The notes below the pieces were generated by a model. That model saw nothing but the letters and a program-made list of their open reading frames with translations, did not search any database and was not told where the DNA came from. Of a stretch of 64,000 bases of DNA, positions 1,656 to 62,366 are shown piece by piece. How positions within the stretch are numbered: position 1 is the stretch's first letter; each line of letters opens with the position of its first letter. This DNA comes from an uncultured virus (IMG/VR IMGVR_UViG_2061766007_000682). Taxonomy: Duplodnaviria > Heunggongvirae > Uroviricota > Caudoviricetes. The DNA is taken from the IMG/VR virus record IMGVR_UViG_2061766007_000682; one strand, 5' to 3'. Both the position numbers and the translations under genes were made by a program.

Positions 1656-1679
1656 TATTAGAAAGTGAGGAAAATCAAA

Positions 1680-3428
1680 ATGCCTTTATCTAATACAGCA
1701 ACACCCAAGTACTACGGACAGTTTAAAGCTAAAGTTCTTAAGGGAGAAATACCAATCAACAAGGAAATTGAGATGGAAATGAACCGTATCGATAAGTTGA
1801 TTGCTAACCCTGGAATTTATTACGATGAGAAAGCCGTTGAAGGTTGGATAAAATTTTGTGAAACTGAATTGACTTTGACAGATGGATCAGAAGTTCATAT
1901 GTTAGACTCGTTTAAATTATGGGGAGAACAAATCTTTGGATGGTATTACTTTGTTGAACGAACGGTCTATGAACCAGGTAAGAATGGTAGACCAGGACAC
2001 TACGTCAACAAGATGATTAAACGTAGACTGATTAATAAACAGTATTTAATAGTAGCAAGAGGCGCTGCAAAGTCAATGTATGCGTCTTTTATACAAGCGT
2101 TTTTTCTTACTGTTGACAGAACTACAACATATCAGATCACTACCGCTCCAACAATGCTCCAAGCTGAAGAAGTAATGTCGCCTATTAAGACGGCTATTAG
2201 TAGAGCTCCGGGTCCGTACTTTAAGTTTTGTACTGCCGGCTCCATTCAGAACACTACAGGTTCTAAAGCTAATAGACCTAAATTGTTTCCTAGTAAGGAA
2301 GGAATTAAATACACGATAACCAATTCAACTTTGCAAGTTAGACCAATGTCTATTGATAAACTTCAAGGTGCGAGACCGAAGATTTGCACTGTCGATGAAT
2401 GGCTTTCTGGAGATGTAACCGAGGACGTAATCGGCGCACTTGAACAAGGTGCAGCTAAAGGCGATCAGGAATATTTGATCGTTGCTATTTCGTCTGAGGG
2501 TACGGTTCGTAATGGTTCTGGTGACACTGTTAAAATGGAGTTAATGGAAATCCTTAAAGGAAATTACGATAATCCTCATGTATCTATTTGGTATTACAAG
2601 CTGGACGATATCAAGGAAGTAGCAAATCCCAATATGTGGATTAAAGCTAACCCTAATCTTGGAAAGACTGTTACTTATGAAACTTATCAATTAGACGTTG
2701 AAAGAGCCGAAAAAGCACCTGCAACTAGAAATGACATTCTTGCCAAAAGATTCGGTATTCCTATGGAGGGTTATACGTACTTCTTTAGATACGAAGAGAC
2801 ACTTCCTCATAGAAGAAGAGACTTTTGGAACATGCGATGCTCGCTTGGTGTTGACTTATCGCAAGGTGATGACTTCTGTGCATTCACATTTCTGTTTCCG
2901 CTTCCAAGAGAACAGTTCGGTGTGAAAGCGCGTAGTTACATTTCTCAAAATACATTGGATAAATTACATCTTGCACAGCGACAAAAGTACGATGAGTTTA
3001 TCAACGAAGGAACTTTAATAGTTTTACCTGGAACAGTACTTGATTTAAGAATAGTTTACGATAATCTAATTAAATACATTGAGGATTCTCAGTACGAAGT
3101 ATGTAGTATGGGATTTGACCCGTATAATGCTCGTGAATTTGTTGAATGGTGGGAAAAAGAAAACTCGCCATATGGTGTAGAAAAAGTAATTCAGGGAGCA
3201 AAAACAGAGTCGGTTCCATTAGGAGAAATTAAACAACTTGCTGAAAATAGATTACTTATATTTGATCAGTCAATAATGACATATACAATGGGAAATTGTA
3301 TAACAATAGAAGATACAAACGGTAATAGAAAGCTATTAAAGCGCCGCTATGAGCAGAAGATTGATAATGTTTCTGCTTTAATGGATGCTTGGGTAGCTTA
3401 CAAGTTACATAAGGAAGAATACGAGTAG
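1680..3428 (+). CDS. terL: Terminase large subunit
   Basis: Walker A variant ARGAAKS, Walker B TVDEW, nuclease GVDLSQGDDF and KIDNVSALMDA. Confidence 0.95.
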   Translation: MPLSNTATPKYYGQFKAKVLKGEIPINKEIEMEMNRIDKLIANPGIYYDEKAVEGWIKFCETELTLTDGSEVHMLDSFKLWGEQIFGWYYFVERTVYEPGKNGRPGHYVNKMIKRRLINKQYLIVARGAAKSMYASFIQAFFLTVDRTTTYQITTAPTMLQAEEVMSPIKTAISRAPGPYFKFCTAGSIQNTTGSKANRPKLFPSKEGIKYTITNSTLQVRPMSIDKLQGARPKICTVDEWLSGDVTEDVIGALEQGAAKGDQEYLIVAISSEGTVRNGSGDTVKMELMEILKGNYDNPHVSIWYYKLDDIKEVANPNMWIKANPNLGKTVTYETYQLDVERAEKAPATRNDILAKRFGIPMEGYTYFFRYEETLPHRRRDFWNMRCSLGVDLSQGDDFCAFTFLFPLPREQFGVKARSYISQNTLDKLHLAQRQKYDEFINEGTLIVLPGTVLDLRIVYDNLIKYIEDSQYEVCSMGFDPYNAREFVEWWEKENSPYGVEKVIQGAKTESVPLGEIKQLAENRLLIFDQSIMTYTMGNCITIEDTNGNRKLLKRRYEQKIDNVSALMDAWVAYKLHKEEYE

Positions 3429-28599: not shown

Positions 28600-29838
28600 A
28601 TGCCTGTTTATGCTTACGATGAAGGATACAATAAGCATGAAGTAGCATCATCTGATGCCCTCGATACATTAGAAGCAGTAGTTGAAACGAAGCAAACTTT
28701 ATTAAATATGACTCAGGGTGCGGAACAAAGTGATTACAATACCTTATCTGATACTGGTATTTATTACATGCCTGTAACTGCAGCTAATAAACCATCTAAT
28801 ACCAATTATATTCTGTTTGTTGCTCCTATTGACGATTCGGCGTCCGCTGTAATGCAAATAGCGTACAGTATAGGTGGCACATTGATGTACACTAGAGTAT
28901 ATTCCTCTGGAACTTGGTCTCCTTGGATGCGATGGGCTACGTACGAATCCGTGCAGCAAATATCGGTTCAAAAGACTTGGAGTGGTACTACAGAACCGGT
29001 CGCTTCTACTGGTAAAAATGGCGACTTATATTGTCTAATTGGAAACACCGGCATCGATGCTACGTACGTAAAAATAAATAACAATTGGATGAAAGTAGAA
29101 TCACAGCAGACATATAGCGGAAGCTCAACACCGAATAACGATTTAGGCAGTAACGGAGACTTATATTTTCAAGTTACTGTCATAAATAGCGTTATTTCTG
29201 TTGTTGCTATTTACACTAAAATTGGAGAAGAATGGGTAAGATCCGATGATGTAACTTATTCGAATTTAACGACCACGAATAAAACGTTACCTGCAGCAAT
29301 TAATGAACTTAATTCGACTAAGCAGAATTCTACTGATAATTCGTTATCAACATCCAGTAAAACAATACCTGGTGCAATTAATGAATTATATTCTAATAAG
29401 CAGAATTCTACTGATAATTCGTTATCAACATCCAGTAAAACAATACCTGGTGCAATTAACGAATTATATTCTAATAAGCAGAATTCTACTGATAATTCCT
29501 TATCAACATCCAGTAAAACAATACCTGGTGCAATTAACGAGTTAAATACTGAAAAACAGGATAGTTTATATGGTAGCACATTGGCAAATACGGATTTCAA
29601 TACTGTAAGAAAAAATGGAAATTATTGGGTAGGTGCAGGCAATACAAATATTCCTGTTTCTGGTGCTTATGGCTATTTGGAAGTAATTAATACTTACAAT
29701 AGTACATCGTCTGCTGTAATGCAGAGGTTTACACGATATGGAAATGATAGTGCATCTACTAGAGGCGAAGTATATGTACGCTTCTATACTAATAGCCAGT
29801 GGTATAGTTGGAATAAAATTGCACAGTTGATTACATAA
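28600..29838 (+). CDS. Tail fibre protein with knob-like domains
   Basis: Two D.N.....G.Y ... W..W knob-like domains, G.NGDLY motifs, KTI.GAINEL repeats. Confidence 0.75.
   Translation: MPVYAYDEGYNKHEVASSDALDTLEAVVETKQTLLNMTQGAEQSDYNTLSDTGIYYMPVTAANKPSNTNYILFVAPIDDSASAVMQIAYSIGGTLMYTRVYSSGTWSPWMRWATYESVQQISVQKTWSGTTEPVASTGKNGDLYCLIGNTGIDATYVKINNNWMKVESQQTYSGSSTPNNDLGSNGDLYFQVTVINSVISVVAIYTKIGEEWVRSDDVTYSNLTTTNKTLPAAINELNSTKQNSTDNSLSTSSKTIPGAINELYSNKQNSTDNSLSTSSKTIPGAINELYSNKQNSTDNSLSTSSKTIPGAINELNTEKQDSLYGSTLANTDFNTVRKNGNYWVGAGNTNIPVSGAYGYLEVINTYNSTSSAVMQRFTRYGNDSASTRGEVYVRFYTNSQWYSWNKIAQLIT
29319..29541 (+). repeat. 78-bp in-frame tandem repeat (about 3 near-identical copies)
   Basis: TAAGCAGAATTCTACTG starts at 29319, 29397 and 29475; encodes KQNSTDNSLSTSSKTIPGAINEL. 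Confidence 0.95.
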
Positions 29839-35649: not shown

Positions 35650-35730
35650 AAAGGATAATATTAGCTCAGTAGGGAGAGCACCGATCTAACAAATTGGAGG
35701 TCCTGGGTTCGATCCCCAGATTTATCCTTT
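35650..35730 (+). tRNA. tRNA-like RNA, anticodon AAC (Val), atypical acceptor stem
   Basis: D arm GCTC/GAGC, anticodon stem CCGAT/ATTGG with loop CTAACAA, T arm CTGGG-TTCGATC-CCCAG; acceptor stem extended and bulged, no CCA. Confidence 0.75.
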
Positions 35731-38195: not shown

Positions 38196-38215
38196 GACTC
38201 TCAATTTCTCACAGG

Positions 38216-38256
38216 AAAGGAGATTGGATGAAAAATCTGATCTCCTGATCTTTTTT
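38216..38256 (+). terminator. Type D hairpin AGGAGATT.GA / TC...TCTCCT
   Basis: Related hairpins at 42641 and 45539, partial at 37881. Confidence 0.75.
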
Positions 38257-38285
38257 GCCTAATTATATTTAAGGAGGTGATTGAT

Positions 38286-42618: not shown

Positions 42619-42681
42619 TGAAGTTATCTACCAAAACAAAAAGGAGATTGGAATTATATTCTAGTCTCCTGATCTTTTTGA

Positions 42682-42861
42682 GTTTTAGAAGCCTTAGTGA
42701 GGTGGCCGGTTTTGCCGTAATTNNNNNNNNNNNNNNNNTGGTTTGTTGTTCTCCAGTAAGTATCTGTGGTGCCTGAACGATACTTACACTAAAAGACGTA
42801 TTATATTTCCACGTCTATAAAAAAAGATTTCGACCGGCCATCTCATTAAGGTTTCTAAGAC
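42682..42861 (+). ncRNA. Putative structured ncRNA, copy B (~180 nt)
   Basis: 42682-42710 pairs with 42833-42861 (29 of 29 pairs, 4 G-U); internal hairpins GTAAGTATC/GATACTTAC and AGACGT/ACGTCT. Confidence 0.7.
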
Positions 42862-42890
42862 AATTATATTTAAGTTAGGAGTGTGAAACT

Positions 42891-43202
42891 ATGACTGAAT
42901 TAGAAAAATTGATACTTCAGAAAAAGGAAATCGAGAACAGAATTCAAGAACTGAAGAACAGCAGAAAGTGCTATGGGAGTGGCAAAGTTCTTAAAAGAGA
43001 ATTTGTGGACCGACCATGTGGAAAAACAATAAAAATTTCATTAAAAACACGTATAAACCGAGAGTATAAAGTACCTACTAGTAGATGGTTTGTTCTCTCA
43101 GAAATGAGCATATCAAAGGATAAAGATGTATATGAATATCTCGAAAAAGTACGCGATGCTTTAAACGAGTATTTAGACGAGCATAATGAAGAGGAGGAAT
43201 AA
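42891..43202 (+). CDS. Hypothetical protein
   Basis: RBS AGGAG; coiled N-terminus. Confidence 0.65.
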   Translation: MTELEKLILQKKEIENRIQELKNSRKCYGSGKVLKREFVDRPCGKTIKISLKTRINREYKVPTSRWFVLSEMSISKDKDVYEYLEKVRDALNEYLDEHNEEEE

Positions 43203-45530: not shown

Positions 45531-45602
45531 TATCTAAAAGGAGATTAGAATTATATTCTGGTCTCCTGATCTTTTTGAATTTTTATTAAAGGAGATGATT
45601 TT

Positions 45603-57449: not shown

Positions 57450-57652
57450 AAATTCAATTTAAAAATGTCAAATTTTGTTGATATTTAGGCCGTTTACGGG
57501 CTTAATTTGTTGACAAACCTGGCACGAACGGCGAAAAAATGTCAAATTTTAAGTCAAAATATGTCAAAAATCTTTGATATTTTTGATAAAATTGTTGAAA
57601 AAACATGAAAAATTCATCAAAATTTGCACAAAATTGCACAAAACTGTTTTTA
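57450..57652. other. Putative replication origin region
   Basis: Non-coding, AT-rich, repeated (AT)GTCAAA and TTGA(C/T)A elements, upstream of the helicase-primase. Confidence 0.5.
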
Positions 57653-58065
57653 ANNNNNNNNNNNNNNNNNNNNNNNNNNNNNNNNNNNNNNNNNNNNNNN
57701 NNNNNNNNNNNNNNNNNNNNNNNNNNNNNNNNNNNNNNNNNNNNNNNNNNNNNNNNNNNNNNNNNNNNNNNNNNNNNNNNNNNNNNNNNNNNNNNNNNNN
57801 NNNNNNNNNNNNNNNNNNNNNNNNNNNNNNNNNNNNNNNNNNNNNNNNNNNNNNNNNNNNNNNNNNNNNNNNNNNNNNNNNNNNNNNNNNNNNNNNNNNN
57901 NNNNNNNNNNNNNNNNNNNNNNNNNNNNNNNNNNNNNNNNNNNNNNNNNNNNNNNNNNNNNNNNNNNNNNNNNNNNNNNNNNNNNNNNNNNNNNNNNNNN
58001 NNNNNNNNNNNNNNNNNNNNNNNNNNNNNNNNNNNNNNNNNNNNNNNNNNNNNNNNNNNNNNNNC

Positions 58066-59738
58066 TCCAAAGATTTGATGGTAAAAGGTTCTAAGTTCTA
58101 TGCTATATGGGATGAAGAAGCCGGATTATGGTCTACAGATTTATATGACGTTCAAAGATTAATTGATAAAGAACTCGATGACTATGTAGCCAAGAATAAT
58201 TTTGACACTAGAGTCAAGATTAGATATCTGGCTTCTTTCTCTTCACAGATTTGGACTACGTTCTTGAAGTATGTAGCTTCATGTCCTGACAATTATAAAT
58301 TGCTGGATAGAACAATTACGTTTGCTGATACACCAGTTAAGAAGAGCGATTATATTTCTAGGAAGCTTCCATATACTTTGAATGATATACCAACTCCAGC
58401 GTATGATGAATTAACAAATTCATTATATTCTCCTGATCAGAAAGAAAAGTTTGAATGGGTGATTGGATCGATAATAGCTGGCGATTCAAGAAAGATTCAA
58501 AAGTTTCTTGTGTTTTATGGAAAACCTGGAACTGGTAAAAGTACAATTCTTAATATTATACAGAAATTATTTGAAGGATACTTTAATTCATTCAATTCAA
58601 AAGCATTAGGAAATTCCAATTCTGAATTTTCAATAGAACCTTTTAGATTAAATCCACTAATTGCTATTGAACATGAAGGTGATCTATCGCATATTGAAGA
58701 TAACACGAGATTAAATAGCATAACGAGCCATGAACCGATAACTGTAAACTTAAAGCATAAATCTATGTACACTGATACATTTACGTCAATGTGTATTATT
58801 GGTACTAATAAACCTGTAAAGATTACAGATTCAAAGTCTGGTATTATTCGAAGACTAATTGATGTAAATCCTAAAGGTATTATTATTCCTGAAAAGAGAT
58901 ACGACGCATTATATCATCAAATAGATTTTGAGTTAGGTGGAATCGCAAAACATTGTTTGGATGTCTATACTTCACTTGGTAAAAATTATTACAAAGATTA
59001 CAAGCCGATTGCAATGATGCAGAAAACTGATGTATTCTTCAATTATATTCAAGAGTATTACAATGAGTATGCAGATGCAAATGAAGTAACATTGAAAAAA
59101 GCTTGGATGAATTATTTGGAATTTTGTAATAATACTAATATTAAGTATGACATGCCTCAGTATAAGTTCAGAGAAGAATTAAAAGAATATTTTGATGAAT
59201 TCCTTGAACAAACTACTATGGGAAATGGAATGCGAGTACGTAGTTTATATAGAGGTTTTAAGAAAGAGAAAATTTATTTAGAAGTAACAAAGCCTGAAAA
59301 AGATAAAACTAAAAAGAACGAGGCTAAGCCATGGGCATTTAATTTAAATAGCACAAAGTCATTGTTAGACAAAGCATTGGCTGACTGTCCTGCACAATAT
59401 GCAAAAGAAGATGGAACACCTGTGACAACTTGGAGTCGTAATATGTATATATTAAAAGACATCGACACAAAAGAGTTGCATTATGTGAAACCGCCTCTTA
59501 ATCATATTGTTATTGACTTTGACTTGAAGAACTCTAATGGCGAAAAAGATTTCNNNNNNNNNNNNNNNNNNNNNNNNNNNNNNNNNNNNNNNNNNNNNNN
59601 NNNNNNNNNNNNNNNNNNCATCTTCATTATATTTATCAAGGAGACCCAGAAATGCTGGCATCTGTCTATGATACAAATATTGAAGTAAAAGTATTTAAAG
59701 GTCGTTCATCTTTGAGGCGTAAACTTACTAAATGTAAT
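58066..59738 (+). CDS. SF3 (D5-like) helicase plus primase-like domain (5' end in gap)
   Basis: Walker A GKPGTGKS, GTNK, RRL; HIVIDFD and, after a gap, HLHY AEP-like motifs. Confidence 0.8.
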
Positions 59739-59775: not shown

Positions 59776-61863
59776 ATGGTAGATTTTACAGTATTAAAGA
59801 ATGAAGCAGCATTAGACACTTATATTCGTAAGTGCCTTAATAAGGAATATTCTCCACATGCGACTAAGCCAATGATAGATTATATTTATGACGCATTGCT
59901 TAAAGCATATGAATCAGGCATGGATTATGACATGTCTAAATGGTATTCTGATATTATGGCCTTCGGACAGAATAGTTCTCATAATGCTGATTATTGTGTA
60001 CGAAAAGTAGTTGAAATGAAATTTAAAGGAAAGAAGTATGAACAGCAGGAAGAAGTTCCAACTAAAATCTCGGATGGGAAATATGACGATGATAGACTTG
60101 TGTTCTTTGATATCGAAGTATTTCCTAATCTTTTAATGATTGTGTGGAAATTTAAAGACGATGATCATATGAATGTCCTTATTAATCCAGAACAAGAAGA
60201 AGTAAGACGATTGTTTCGTTTGAAACTTGTTGGATTCAACTGCCGTCGATACGATAATCACATTGTGTATGCTGCAGGAGCAGGGTTTACACTAAAAGAA
60301 TTATATTCTTTGAGCAAGATGATTATTAAAGAGCAAAAAGGATTTATTGTGCCAGCGTATGGATTGTCGTATGCTGACATTTATGACTTCTCGACTACTA
60401 AGCAAAGTCTTAAGCGATTTGAGATTGATCTTGGTATTCATCACCAGGAACTTCCATTAGATTGGAACAAACCTGTNNNNNNNNNNNNNNNNNNNNNNNN
60501 NNNNNNNNNNTGTAACGACGTTAGAGCAACTGAAGCAACATTTAATAAGTTGCAAGCTGACTATGATGCTAGATGTATTATTGCTGAGCTGGCAGGTTTA
60601 ACACCTAACTCAACAACAAGAGTTTGCACAGAGCATATTATATTTGGCGAAGACATGCATCCGCAAGATAAGTTTGTTTACACCGACTTGTCTACAATCT
60701 TTCCGGGCTATGTATTTAAATCCGGTAAGAGTACATATGCTGGTGAAGTAATCGGAGAAGGCGGATATGTATATGCTGAACCCGGTGCGTATGGCAAAGT
60801 NNNNNNNNNNNNNNNNNNNNNNNNNNNNNNNNNNNNNNNNNNNNNNNNNNNNNNNNNNNNNNNNNNNNNNNNNNNNNNNNNNNNNNNNNNNNNNNNNNNN
60901 NNNNNTAAATGGTATCTTGGTTCCATATATGTCTGATGAAGCAGCTTGTAAAAAATTAGCTTATGCTCTAAAGATCGTAATTAATAGCGTATATGGTTTA
61001 ACATGTGCATCATTTGAGAACAGGTTTAGAGACCCAAGAAACATTGACAACATTGTTGCTAAGAGAGGCGCATTATTCATGTGCACTCTTAAACACAAGG
61101 TTCAGGAAATGGGTTACAAGGTTGTTCATATTAAAACGGATTCAATTAAGATTGCAGAGCCAGATGAGACAATTATTAAATTCGTAACAGAATTTGGTAA
61201 ATCATATGGTTACTCGTTTGAGGTTGAACATGAATTTGAACGAATCTTACTTGTAAATGATGCTGTTTATGTTGGTAAAACTACAGAACCGGATGACGAT
61301 GGTCTTTATTGGACAGCAACCGGAGCTGAGTTTAAACGGCCATACATATTTAAGATGCTCTTTACTAAGCAACCAATTATATTCTCAGACTTGTGTGAAA
61401 CAAAGCAAGTGCAAACTGAGATTTATTTGGATTTTAATGAAGAGAATCCTGATAAGCATAGATACACTTTTGTTGGTAAGGTCGGATCATTCTTACCAGT
61501 CAGAGAAGGTTGTGGCGGAGGCTTACTTATGAGAAAAGTAAATGCTGATGACCAAATACCTGTTGACGTCTGGTTGGATGAGAAAGATGTTGTTGACGAA
61601 AAAGACTCAAAGAAATTTAATAAATTTGCGTCAGTAACAGGAGCAAAAGGGTATCGTTGGAAAGAGGCTGAACTCATTAAAGATGACTTCGAGTCTCAAA
61701 TTGATATGACATACTATAATAATATGGCAGATGAAGCAAAGAATCATATTATGGAATTCTGTGATTATGAACTGTTTGTTTCAGATGACGATTATATAGT
61801 NNNNNNNNNNNNNNNNNNNNNNNNNNNNNNNNAAATGAAGATTTACCATGGGACAACAATTAA
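59776..61863 (+). CDS. DNA polymerase (3'-5' exonuclease plus family B-like motifs)
   Basis: FDIEVF, GFN..YD, C.NDV..T; KIVINSVYG and KTDS; joined across gaps. Confidence 0.85.
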
Positions 61864-61892
61864 AACATTTAAAATTTTAGGAGGATTTAAAA

Positions 61893-62366
61893 ATGAAAAT
61901 TAAGGTAATGAGACCCGCAAATGGTGGAAGAGATGTTTATGTTATTCAGAATGCTCAGCTTAAGTATAAGAACTTTAGTGGCAAGCAGGGCAAGTTCCCA
62001 GGATCTAGATCGGTCAACGTTCTTGTTGATGCTGAGGATAAGGCAATGATGGAAGCAAAGGGTCTCAGAGTTAATGAGAGAACTAATCCGCATACAAACG
62101 AAGTTGAGTATACAATTAGAATTAATGTTAAGATGCTTCCTGGCAACTCTCCGAAGATCACTCAGAGAACTGGTAANNNNNNNNNNNNNNNNGAAGTAAC
62201 TGTAGAAGCTCTCGACAGTGTTTCCATCAGCAAGGCAGATGTTGCCTGGACTTACGGTTTTGGAACAGGAAATCCCGTTGCTTACCTTAAGGAAATGAAT
62301 GTGGTTATTGTTCCTTCCATCTTTGCACCGGATGCGAATGATTATTACATGGAGACCCATGATTGA
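61893..62366 (+). CDS. Putative single-stranded DNA-binding protein
   Basis: NA....KNFSG...R, LD...I..AD, AYLK.M; position in replication module. Confidence 0.6.
   Translation: MKIKVMRPANGGRDVYVIQNAQLKYKNFSGKQGKFPGSRSVNVLVDAEDKAMMEAKGLRVNERTNPHTNEVEYTIRINVKMLPGNSPKITQRTGXXXXXXEVTVEALDSVSISKADVAWTYGFGTGNPVAYLKEMNVVIVPSIFAPDANDYYMETHD

Follow-up and report, generated by a model that had tools for sequence, protein, structure and literature searches.

An RNA domain with a long closing helix and an anti-Shine-Dalgarno motif, typical of the leader of phage packaging genes, and its second copy in an uncultured siphophage-like genome

In the early mRNAs of phages T7, lambda, and SP82, RNase III sites and 5' structures part transcription units and stabilise the downstream message. 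In Firmicutes, regulatory RNAs such as Staphylococcus aureus RNAIII and RsaE/RoxS expose C/U-rich loops complementary to GGAG, and the duplexes that they form with their targets are often passed to RNase III. Here, we describe element B, which occupies positions 42682 to 42861 on the + strand of a 64,000-nucleotide (nt) stretch of DNA from an uncultured virus of the Caudoviricetes (IMG/VR record IMGVR_UViG_2061766007_000682; the whole stretch is called the window below). B is very probably a genuine member of a family of structured RNAs encoded on the + strand, whose members combine a closing helix of usually 22-35 base pairs (bp) with an interior motif equal to the core of the 16S rRNA tail. 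By analogy, the element would work most like the two kinds of RNA just mentioned, being a member of neither.

The phage RNase III hairpins (T7 R sites, the lambda N leader, SP82 early RNA) are also intergenic and co-directional with the genes, have a helix that is long enough, separate units of transcription or translation, and are present several times in a genome. However, they are short and irregular, of about 50-60 nt, and lack both an enclosed domain of 50-140 nt and a motif complementary to the Shine-Dalgarno (SD) sequence. RNAIII and RsaE/RoxS are encoded by host genes of their own and use UCCC or CCCC as seeds, whereas the element is phage-borne, would form part of an mRNA leader, and has a very long closing helix and the full CUCCUUUC core. 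A third comparison is offered by the leaders that carry an anti-SD in cis, such as attenuators, RNA thermometers, and riboswitch platforms, where the anti-SD also stands upstream of a gene with a strong SD, within one RNA. In those leaders, a local hairpin pairs the anti-SD directly with the SD to which it is tailored, whereas the motif described here is the same from member to member, is enclosed within a domain, and does not fit the cognate SD significantly better than others. Finally, the processing stalks of rRNA operons share with the element a long flanking helix that RNase III would cut and the presence of CUCCUUUC in the enclosed RNA, but the RNA enclosed here measures 50-140 nt, is not rRNA, and matches no rRNA family of Rfam.

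The closing helix of B is formed by two 29-nt arms on the + strand, at 42682-42710 (5' arm) and 42833-42861 (3' arm), identified by an inverted-repeat search, a pair count, and an arm alignment. The arms are 122 nt apart, 86% Watson-Crick complementary, and free of bulges, and they make up the longest inverted repeat of the window. Counted base by base, 25 of the pairs are Watson-Crick and the remaining four are G-U on the + strand. The interior (42711 to 42832, 122 nt) contains an unpaired UUCUCC at 42750-42755 and hairpins at 42756-42787 and 42794-42816; the second internal hairpin (29 nt) is missing from two of the relatives described below, X5 and L141. The window has 2159 bases N in several runs, and one of these runs, of 16 bases (42724-42739), lies inside the interior, so that the B of the window is not foldable as a whole. 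Only two long-range inverted repeats of the window score at least 14, under a strand-neutral score in which G-T and A-C are both penalised: B, with 17, and a second element, copy A, with 16. In eight block-shuffled versions of the window, the highest score was 11-14, and only one of them reached 14.

Copy A (253 to 440, + strand) is the canonical member of the family and, as the second longest inverted repeat of the window, has a 28-bp helix (253-280 with 413-440) made of 24 Watson-Crick pairs, two G-U, one A-C, and one C-U. The arms of A and B are about 75% identical and their interiors mostly unrelated, and A is a true paralogue of B. Copy A folds to -61.5 kcal/mol (z -8.1) on the + strand, versus -57.2 kcal/mol (z -5.2) on the - strand. 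The complete B elements of two metagenome contigs, L138 and L141, reach -69.3 kcal/mol (z -7.2) and -60.1 kcal/mol (z -7.3) on the sense strand, and the antisense strand of the first B relative folded gave -59.8 kcal/mol (z -5.5).

The preference for one strand is repeated throughout the family. In stems found by the strand-neutral search, sense-strand mismatches are G-U in 103 cases and A-C in 27, with a G-U share of 0.48 expected from base composition; the corresponding binomial p of about 1e-11 overstates independence, because the stem sequences are related. Both data sets point in the same direction, with 50:12 and 47:14. This asymmetry is not expected of a DNA cruciform or of transposon ends. 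The arms also change together: when those of both copies of the window (winA, winB) are aligned with L138, L141, and L007, 94.7% of the cells pair and 12 of the 30 pairs have changed on both sides, values that none of 500 shuffles reached, slid registers pairing at 31-51%. Two loci, L008 and L009, were excluded from this pair count because MAFFT moved their inner arms by one column. One stem position is G-U in the B-type elements and A-C in winA and L007, and between subfamilies the arm sequences are almost wholly different, with pairing kept. It is on these grounds that we hold B, with high confidence, to be a real + strand member of a structured RNA family, although folding of the sense strand as single-stranded DNA may fit the sequence data as well. 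The initial annotation of B, prepared from the letters of the window alone, had proposed a 29-bp stem deviating from Watson-Crick pairing only by four G-U on the + strand, and an RNA structure rather than a plain DNA inverted repeat, and both proposals agree with the pair count and with the family-wide bias and co-variation. Its further observation that the two copies share their context, with a terminator hairpin just before and AATTATATT nearby, holds at both. An exposed TTCTCC, which it had assigned to both interiors, is present in B; copy A carries CTCCTTT (336-342; CUCCUUU in the RNA) and TTCTTCC instead.

B recurs, with its flanks, in independent samples. In the window, it is directly preceded by a terminator-like hairpin (42642-42670; with its T run, 42642 to 42679, + strand) whose loop holds a copy of AATTATATT (42652-42660), and is followed on the + strand, within 42862 to 42893, by another AATTATATT (42862-42870), the SD AGGAG (42877-42881), and the ATG (42891) of the next open reading frame (ORF). 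X5, a contig from an independent study, and the metagenome contigs L138 and L141 have the same order of terminator, B, AATTATATT, and SD, with about 95% identity. Downstream of B, the window, L138, and L141 each have a different gene, and 322 other letters stand there in X5; L141 also differs in its upstream gene. The downstream ORF does not belong to the element, since relatives with B have other genes in its place. The arm changes seen among these carriers preserve pairing (U.G to U-A, U-A to U.G, and G-C to A-U at the base of the helix). A pattern scan of metagenome contigs found five loci, and three of these (L139, L140, and L142) were discarded as chance hits because no second arm matched the first. 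Separately, contigs X1, X3, and X4 stop or branch at the repeated terminator (a repeat of about 45 nt), probably as an effect of assembly, and they were not used as evidence of absence. DNA nearly identical to that of the window occurs in bovine gut metagenome runs, with no RNA run among the 20 listed.

The masked part of B corresponds, in L138 and L141, to a predicted hairpin whose 12-nt loop, CAUCUCCUUUCU, holds the conserved motif of the family; around that loop, 16 of 18 positions equal the 16S tail of the host. X5 has an insert with the same motif at the corresponding place, and CTCCTTTC is present in the corresponding part of all three B-carrying relatives.

This motif is the only sequence that the family conserves. 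Its core, CUCCUUUC, occurs in nearly every interior and is the core of the 16S rRNA 3' tail, that is, the anti-SD. More fully, the conserved core reads CTCCTTTC, often followed by A, and the positions on its 5' side are variable. Compared with the 16S rRNA 3' end taken from the host genome of one family member (TGGATCACCTCCTTTCTA), 60 of 63 elements contain an exact match of at least 7 nt, versus two of 62 coding controls of the same length. CUCCUU was found in all 26 of the viral-contig elements examined, and partition-function folding gave a mean predicted unpaired probability above 0.5 over the motif in 18 of the 26. As the reverse complement of the usual ribosome-binding site, the motif is nearly absent from the sense strand outside the element. 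CTCCTTT has a single site on the sense strand of the window (64 kb), the one within copy A, and the contigs of ten relatives (543 kb) contain CTCCTTTC 14 times on the sense strand, with ten of these sites inside the leader element, two in ORFs, and two being the ribosome-binding sites of antisense genes. The extra sites were considered as possible second element copies in the ten relatives, an idea that was abandoned as the ORFs and antisense genes explain them.

The canonical site of the family is the one occupied by copy A. There, the element is preceded by a GC-rich terminator-like hairpin (207-225; as the wider feature, 207-233) and AATTATATT (239-247), and it is followed on the + strand by a gene for a terS-like protein of 103 amino acids (PHROG 4259; 457 to 768), an HNH endonuclease gene (644-1165), and the large terminase gene (1665-3428). 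A search of viral contigs with the terS-like protein found a repeat with arms of 31-35 nt just upstream of the gene in all six close relatives. A profile of these proteins extended the set to 58 viral loci, with 29 stems scoring at least 12, of which 25 are distinct, all 25 containing CTCCTT. Bacterial and archaeal genome bins and isolates added 52 loci with 35 distinct stems of at least 12, CTCCTT being present in 30; the hosts are mostly Lachnospiraceae, Ruminococcus, Christensenellaceae, Oscillospiraceae, Butyrivibrio, and other Clostridia. The family helix usually measures 22-35 bp and is nearly unbroken, and the interior 50-140 nt. Among cultured phages, 228 records carry a terS-like gene, and three were inspected. 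Arthrobacter phage Sporto has a stem with 36-nt arms and UUCCUUUCAAGAG inside, within the stretch …CUUCCUUUCAAGAG…, and Bifidobacterium phage BitterVaud1 has a stem with 15-nt arms that encloses CUCCUU; the third phage is taken up below. Two long inverted repeats are in fact present within the 583 nt that precede gene 1 of Sporto (L146), at 45-154 (29-nt arms) and 374-497 (36-nt arms), and only the second one encloses the pyrimidine motif.

B does not stand at this position. It lies in the early region, ahead of a 103-amino-acid ORF (42891 to 43202, + strand; no Pfam or PHROG family) that is unrelated to the terS-like gene, and, being away from the site next to the cohesive-end (cos) region and the terS-like gene where A sits, it is best described as an ectopic copy. 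The two 103-amino-acid proteins encoded after A and after B showed no homology when compared, and a search of the viral contigs for relatives of the one after B returned only two 28-residue matches, which were not used. The whole contigs of five relatives contain one long-stem element each, and the window contains two.

The distance from the contig end to the terS-like gene downstream is 124-424 nt in 34 of the 58 viral loci, and the stem, where one was found, lies 26-70 nt from that end. Between contig end and element, several loci (L016, L020-L022, L028, L061, L085, L145, and L147) share a motif consisting of CGCGCCGGTC, an A run, TTCYCCGGRGG, and a T run. The contig ends near the stem, together with this GC-rich motif, fit a physical cos end, and the region is probably the cos region. 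The records of the SEA-PHAGES programme begin at the physical genome end, and the deposited left end of Streptomyces phage RosaAsantewaa begins exactly at the second part of the motif. At the corresponding site (about 196-233), the window carries a GC-rich hairpin that differs from this motif.

Known families did not account for the element. Rfam 15, which includes phi29 pRNA, 6S, EAR, tRNA-like RNAs, and ribozymes, reported for the window, at the gathering threshold, only a tRNA at 35654-35727, and for eleven relatives' loci at E<=1 only a sub-threshold hit to mir-1255 on a long hairpin (37.9 bits versus a gathering threshold of 63). Neither blastn of the A and B loci against 50,697 phage records nor a scan of the viral contigs with two arm patterns found a match. 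We found no description of such an element in the literature, and the family, which is widespread in phages, is apparently undescribed. A 2023 survey of IMG/VR (PMC10690425) lists more than 10,000 unnamed structured-RNA candidates (the DNAVirus_N set), some of them upstream of terminase genes, and the family may be among them; its architecture and motif were not found in the passages of the article and the part of its supplement that were searched.

How would such a domain act? We propose that the window carries, in B, a further copy, now diverged, of a phage RNA family, and that this copy, like all genes of the window, is read from the + strand. Normally, members of the family would occupy the leader that runs from the cos end to the first packaging gene, which codes for the terS-like protein. 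The domain would be made as part of an mRNA leader, where the exposed pyrimidine motif could pair with GGAG-type ribosome-binding sites and so control translation, either of the gene behind the element or, after release, of other messages. The long helix would probably serve as an RNase III processing site, as a protection that yields a stable RNA, or as both. What the analysis shows is the structure, its strand, the family, the motif, and the recurrence of B in independent samples, whereas the transcription, the cleavage, and the SD pairing in this scheme are inferred. Taken as a whole, a leader or excised RNA that pairs with SD sequences and carries an RNase III or stability helix is the best explanation that we have, and we give it about an even chance. 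That the element acts through SD pairing at all falls slightly short of even, its probability being divided about equally between action in cis and in trans. Whether RNase III cuts the helix is evenly balanced. RNase III requires an unbroken RNA duplex of some two helical turns, 20-22 bp or more; B, with 29 unbroken bp, and the family stems, with up to 36 bp, have that length, cleavage itself being a prediction.

Several observations weigh against this explanation. The visible part of B carries only UUCUCC, and the masked run that covers the motif site of the relatives is about half as long as their segment, so that the B of the window may lack part of the motif hairpin. Half of the viral loci (29 of 58) score below 12 or show no stem, in some cases because the contigs are too short and in others because the stems are short or interrupted (10 bp in L085). 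CTCCTT is missing from five of the 35 elements in the genome set, RosaAsantewaa has the terS-like gene with only 105 nt before it and no element, and the family counts are not phylogenetically independent. Pairing in cis was examined by comparing cognate motif-ribosome-binding-site duplexes with non-cognate ones. Generic complementarity is present in every case, but the cognate mean of -12.84 kcal/mol is not significantly better than the non-cognate mean of -12.11 kcal/mol (permutation p of 0.059). Within the subfamily of the window (winA, L007, L008, and L009), the cognate site ranks 6th of 26 for winA and 26th, 26th, and 25th for L007, L008, and L009, respectively. The geometry is also unfavourable, as the SD stands 4-8 nt from the base of a helix of about 28 bp, which would place it too near to reach the distal motif if the helix is formed. 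For pairing in trans, no stretch of at least 12 nt in the visible interior of A or B is complementary to other + strand RNA of the window. The B loop of the relatives has 13 sites of at least 9 nt in the window, where shuffled targets give a mean of 8.6 and a maximum of 27; its 12-nt matches (44055, 45588, and 52185) and an 11-nt match (49339) all fall on generic early-gene ribosome-binding sites. SD pairing is therefore held here without choosing between cis and trans.

If the proposal is right, siphophages of gut Clostridia, of Bifidobacterium, and of soil actinobacteria share an undescribed RNA at the start of the packaging operon, and phages would thereby control translation at the RNA level as well, in cis or in trans. 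The element is also a practical marker of the cos-proximal genome end in metagenome assemblies. The cultured members, namely Sporto, BitterVaud1, and the prophages of Butyrivibrio sp. INlla21 and of Clostridiales bacterium CCNA10, make the proposal directly testable.

The evidence for the helix would also fit a pure module for RNA processing or stability, in which the helix is an RNase III site, a 5' protection, or both, and the motif has no pairing role. Unbroken helices of 22-35 bp, the position of both A and B right after terminator-like hairpins and right before a gene, and the retention of B while its neighbour genes change are what a generic intergenic unit would show. However, such a module leaves unexplained why 60 of 63 interiors retain the 8-nt core of the 16S tail while the arms and the remaining interior diverge, and why the motif is nearly absent elsewhere on the sense strand; we consider it unlikely. 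B is not marked as an intrinsic terminator either, since the terminator scan picks out the upstream hairpin (42642-42670), and it is AAUUAUAUUUAAG that follows the 3' arm of B.

The likeness to the 16S tail can be taken further than in the leader proposal. A stable RNA cut from the leader and displaying the tail in a loop might compete for SD sites, or act as a decoy for a host factor or a defence nuclease that recognises the 16S 3' end, and so reprogramme translation during infection, with B as a separate switch specific to one gene set. This is unlikely to a similar degree, and so is, jointly with it, the further suggestion that the B loop of the relatives matches AAAGGAGAUGAU-type early sites better than the ribosome does.

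Less likely again is a leader that acts on RNA polymerase and provides processive antitermination, in the manner of HK022 putL/putR or the Bacillus EAR, so that transcripts begun behind a terminator could read through the later terminators of a long operon. As with putL and putR, there are two paralogous structured leaders in one genome, each heading a long co-directional block or operon, and a terminator lies immediately before each copy here; about 30 kb of structural genes follow A, and from B it is 2.9 kb to the next copy of the repeated terminator. The resemblance does not extend to sequence or structure, the size differs, and antitermination by the element is putative. Moreover, no similarity to an Rfam family was obtained, the put and EAR RNAs are compact and have neither a 30-bp helix nor an anti-SD motif, and the whole contigs of five relatives contain the packaging-gene copy only.

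A decoy for a protein is equally improbable. Here, the 16S-tail look-alike would titrate or distract a host or phage protein that normally binds the 3' end of 16S rRNA. Candidates for such a protein are maturation factors, toxins directed at rRNA, and defence nucleases. Such a role would explain why the motif equals the core of the 16S tail without clearly tracking the ribosome-binding site of its own gene, and the agreement at 16 of 18 loop-region positions in the B-type relatives would be in its favour. Yet outside the B type, conservation ends at the 8-nt core, the positions 5' of CUCC being variable, and no candidate partner gene is linked to the element.

It is very unlikely that the element acts as DNA, whether as a cos accessory site, as a recombination linker between modules, or as a miniature transposable element, with pairing that would be irrelevant or would act in single-stranded DNA. 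The closeness of A-type elements to contig ends (26-70 nt) and the ends of 34 of the 58 viral contigs shortly before the gene would suit a cos accessory site, and the position of B at a mosaic junction, with flanking genes that vary between phages, would suit a linker. However, sites bound by proteins in double-stranded DNA need no intramolecular complementarity, and still the arms co-vary; the sense-strand bias of G-T over A-C is not expected of cruciforms or transposon ends; and no cos-like motif stands beside B. The initial annotation had named, as the signs of a mobile-element remnant, arms without G-U bias flanked by target-site duplications, and neither sign was seen. No duplicated bases adjoin B (…TTTTTGA / AATTATATT…) or A (…TTTTTAA / AAGGTGG…), the window and five relatives have one or two copies per genome, and no transposase was found. 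With arms that are unrelated across the family and nevertheless co-vary, a miniature inverted-repeat transposable element was rejected.

The remaining idea, that of a guide-like RNA whose conserved arms bind a protein and whose variable interior sets the target, came from the initial annotation and from the comparison of A with B (arms about 75% identical, interiors mostly unrelated), and it is hardly tenable, as the arms of the family conserve nothing except pairing, the only conserved sequence, CUCCUUUC, sits in the interior, the visible interiors have no complementarity of at least 12 nt to phage RNA in the window, and no nuclease or other effector gene travels with B, whose flanking genes vary. 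A retron msr-msd would have a reverse transcriptase gene beside it, and the ORFs that flank A and B have no such domain according to Pfam and PHROGs.

The window in which both copies are found is a siphophage-like genome with all recognisable genes on the + strand. Besides the packaging genes, it has portal, protease, and tail genes, an ORF of tape-measure size (2685 amino acids), lysis-type domains, and a tRNA-Val, followed by small early genes and replication genes. The tRNA-Val (anticodon AAC, 35653-35728) separates the late from the early gene block. Three nearly identical terminator modules, at 38213-38258, 42636-42681, and 45533-45580 (…AAAGGAGATTGG…TCTCCTGATCTTTTT…), stand between small early genes. 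Contigs assembled from public runs branch at these modules, and the genes between them differ among related phages, so the terminator repeats fit cassette exchange at these sites.

The 9-mer AATTATATT, which borders both elements, has 35 sites in the window, all on the + strand, versus 3.3 expected, examples being those at 239, 38261, 42258, 42652, 42862, 44044, 45549, 46791, 49328, and 54566. Its conservation stops at the nine bases. It often stands 2-8 nt ahead of an SD, twice in terminator loops, and also within ORFs, and its sense-to-antisense ratio in relatives is 21:0 (G004), 8:2 (G002), 7:0 (G003), and 4:0 (G001). Its role may be that of a promoter-like element or of a signal for RNA processing; among the 37 ORFs scanned, neither a sigma factor nor an RNA polymerase that might read it was recognised. 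Two copies of it are contained in a 78-nt direct duplication (29340-29500), one in each repeat, within an ORF of 412 amino acids (28600-29838).

Two further features concern the coding content of the window. The match to a primase-polymerase-type DNA polymerase (PHROG 4210, profile length 1304) is spread over three consecutive ORFs, at 57574-59688, 59776-60936, and 60767-61903, which cover profile positions 28-537, 620-956, and 1007-1293, respectively, and the gene may be split, interrupted, or frameshifted. The ribosome-binding sites, in turn, come in two flavours, both confined to the + strand: GGAGGTGA, with 10 sites between 1158 and 50225, mostly in the late and lysis region, and GGAGATGA, with seven sites between 35963 and 52196, which is the better match to the loop of the B-type relatives.

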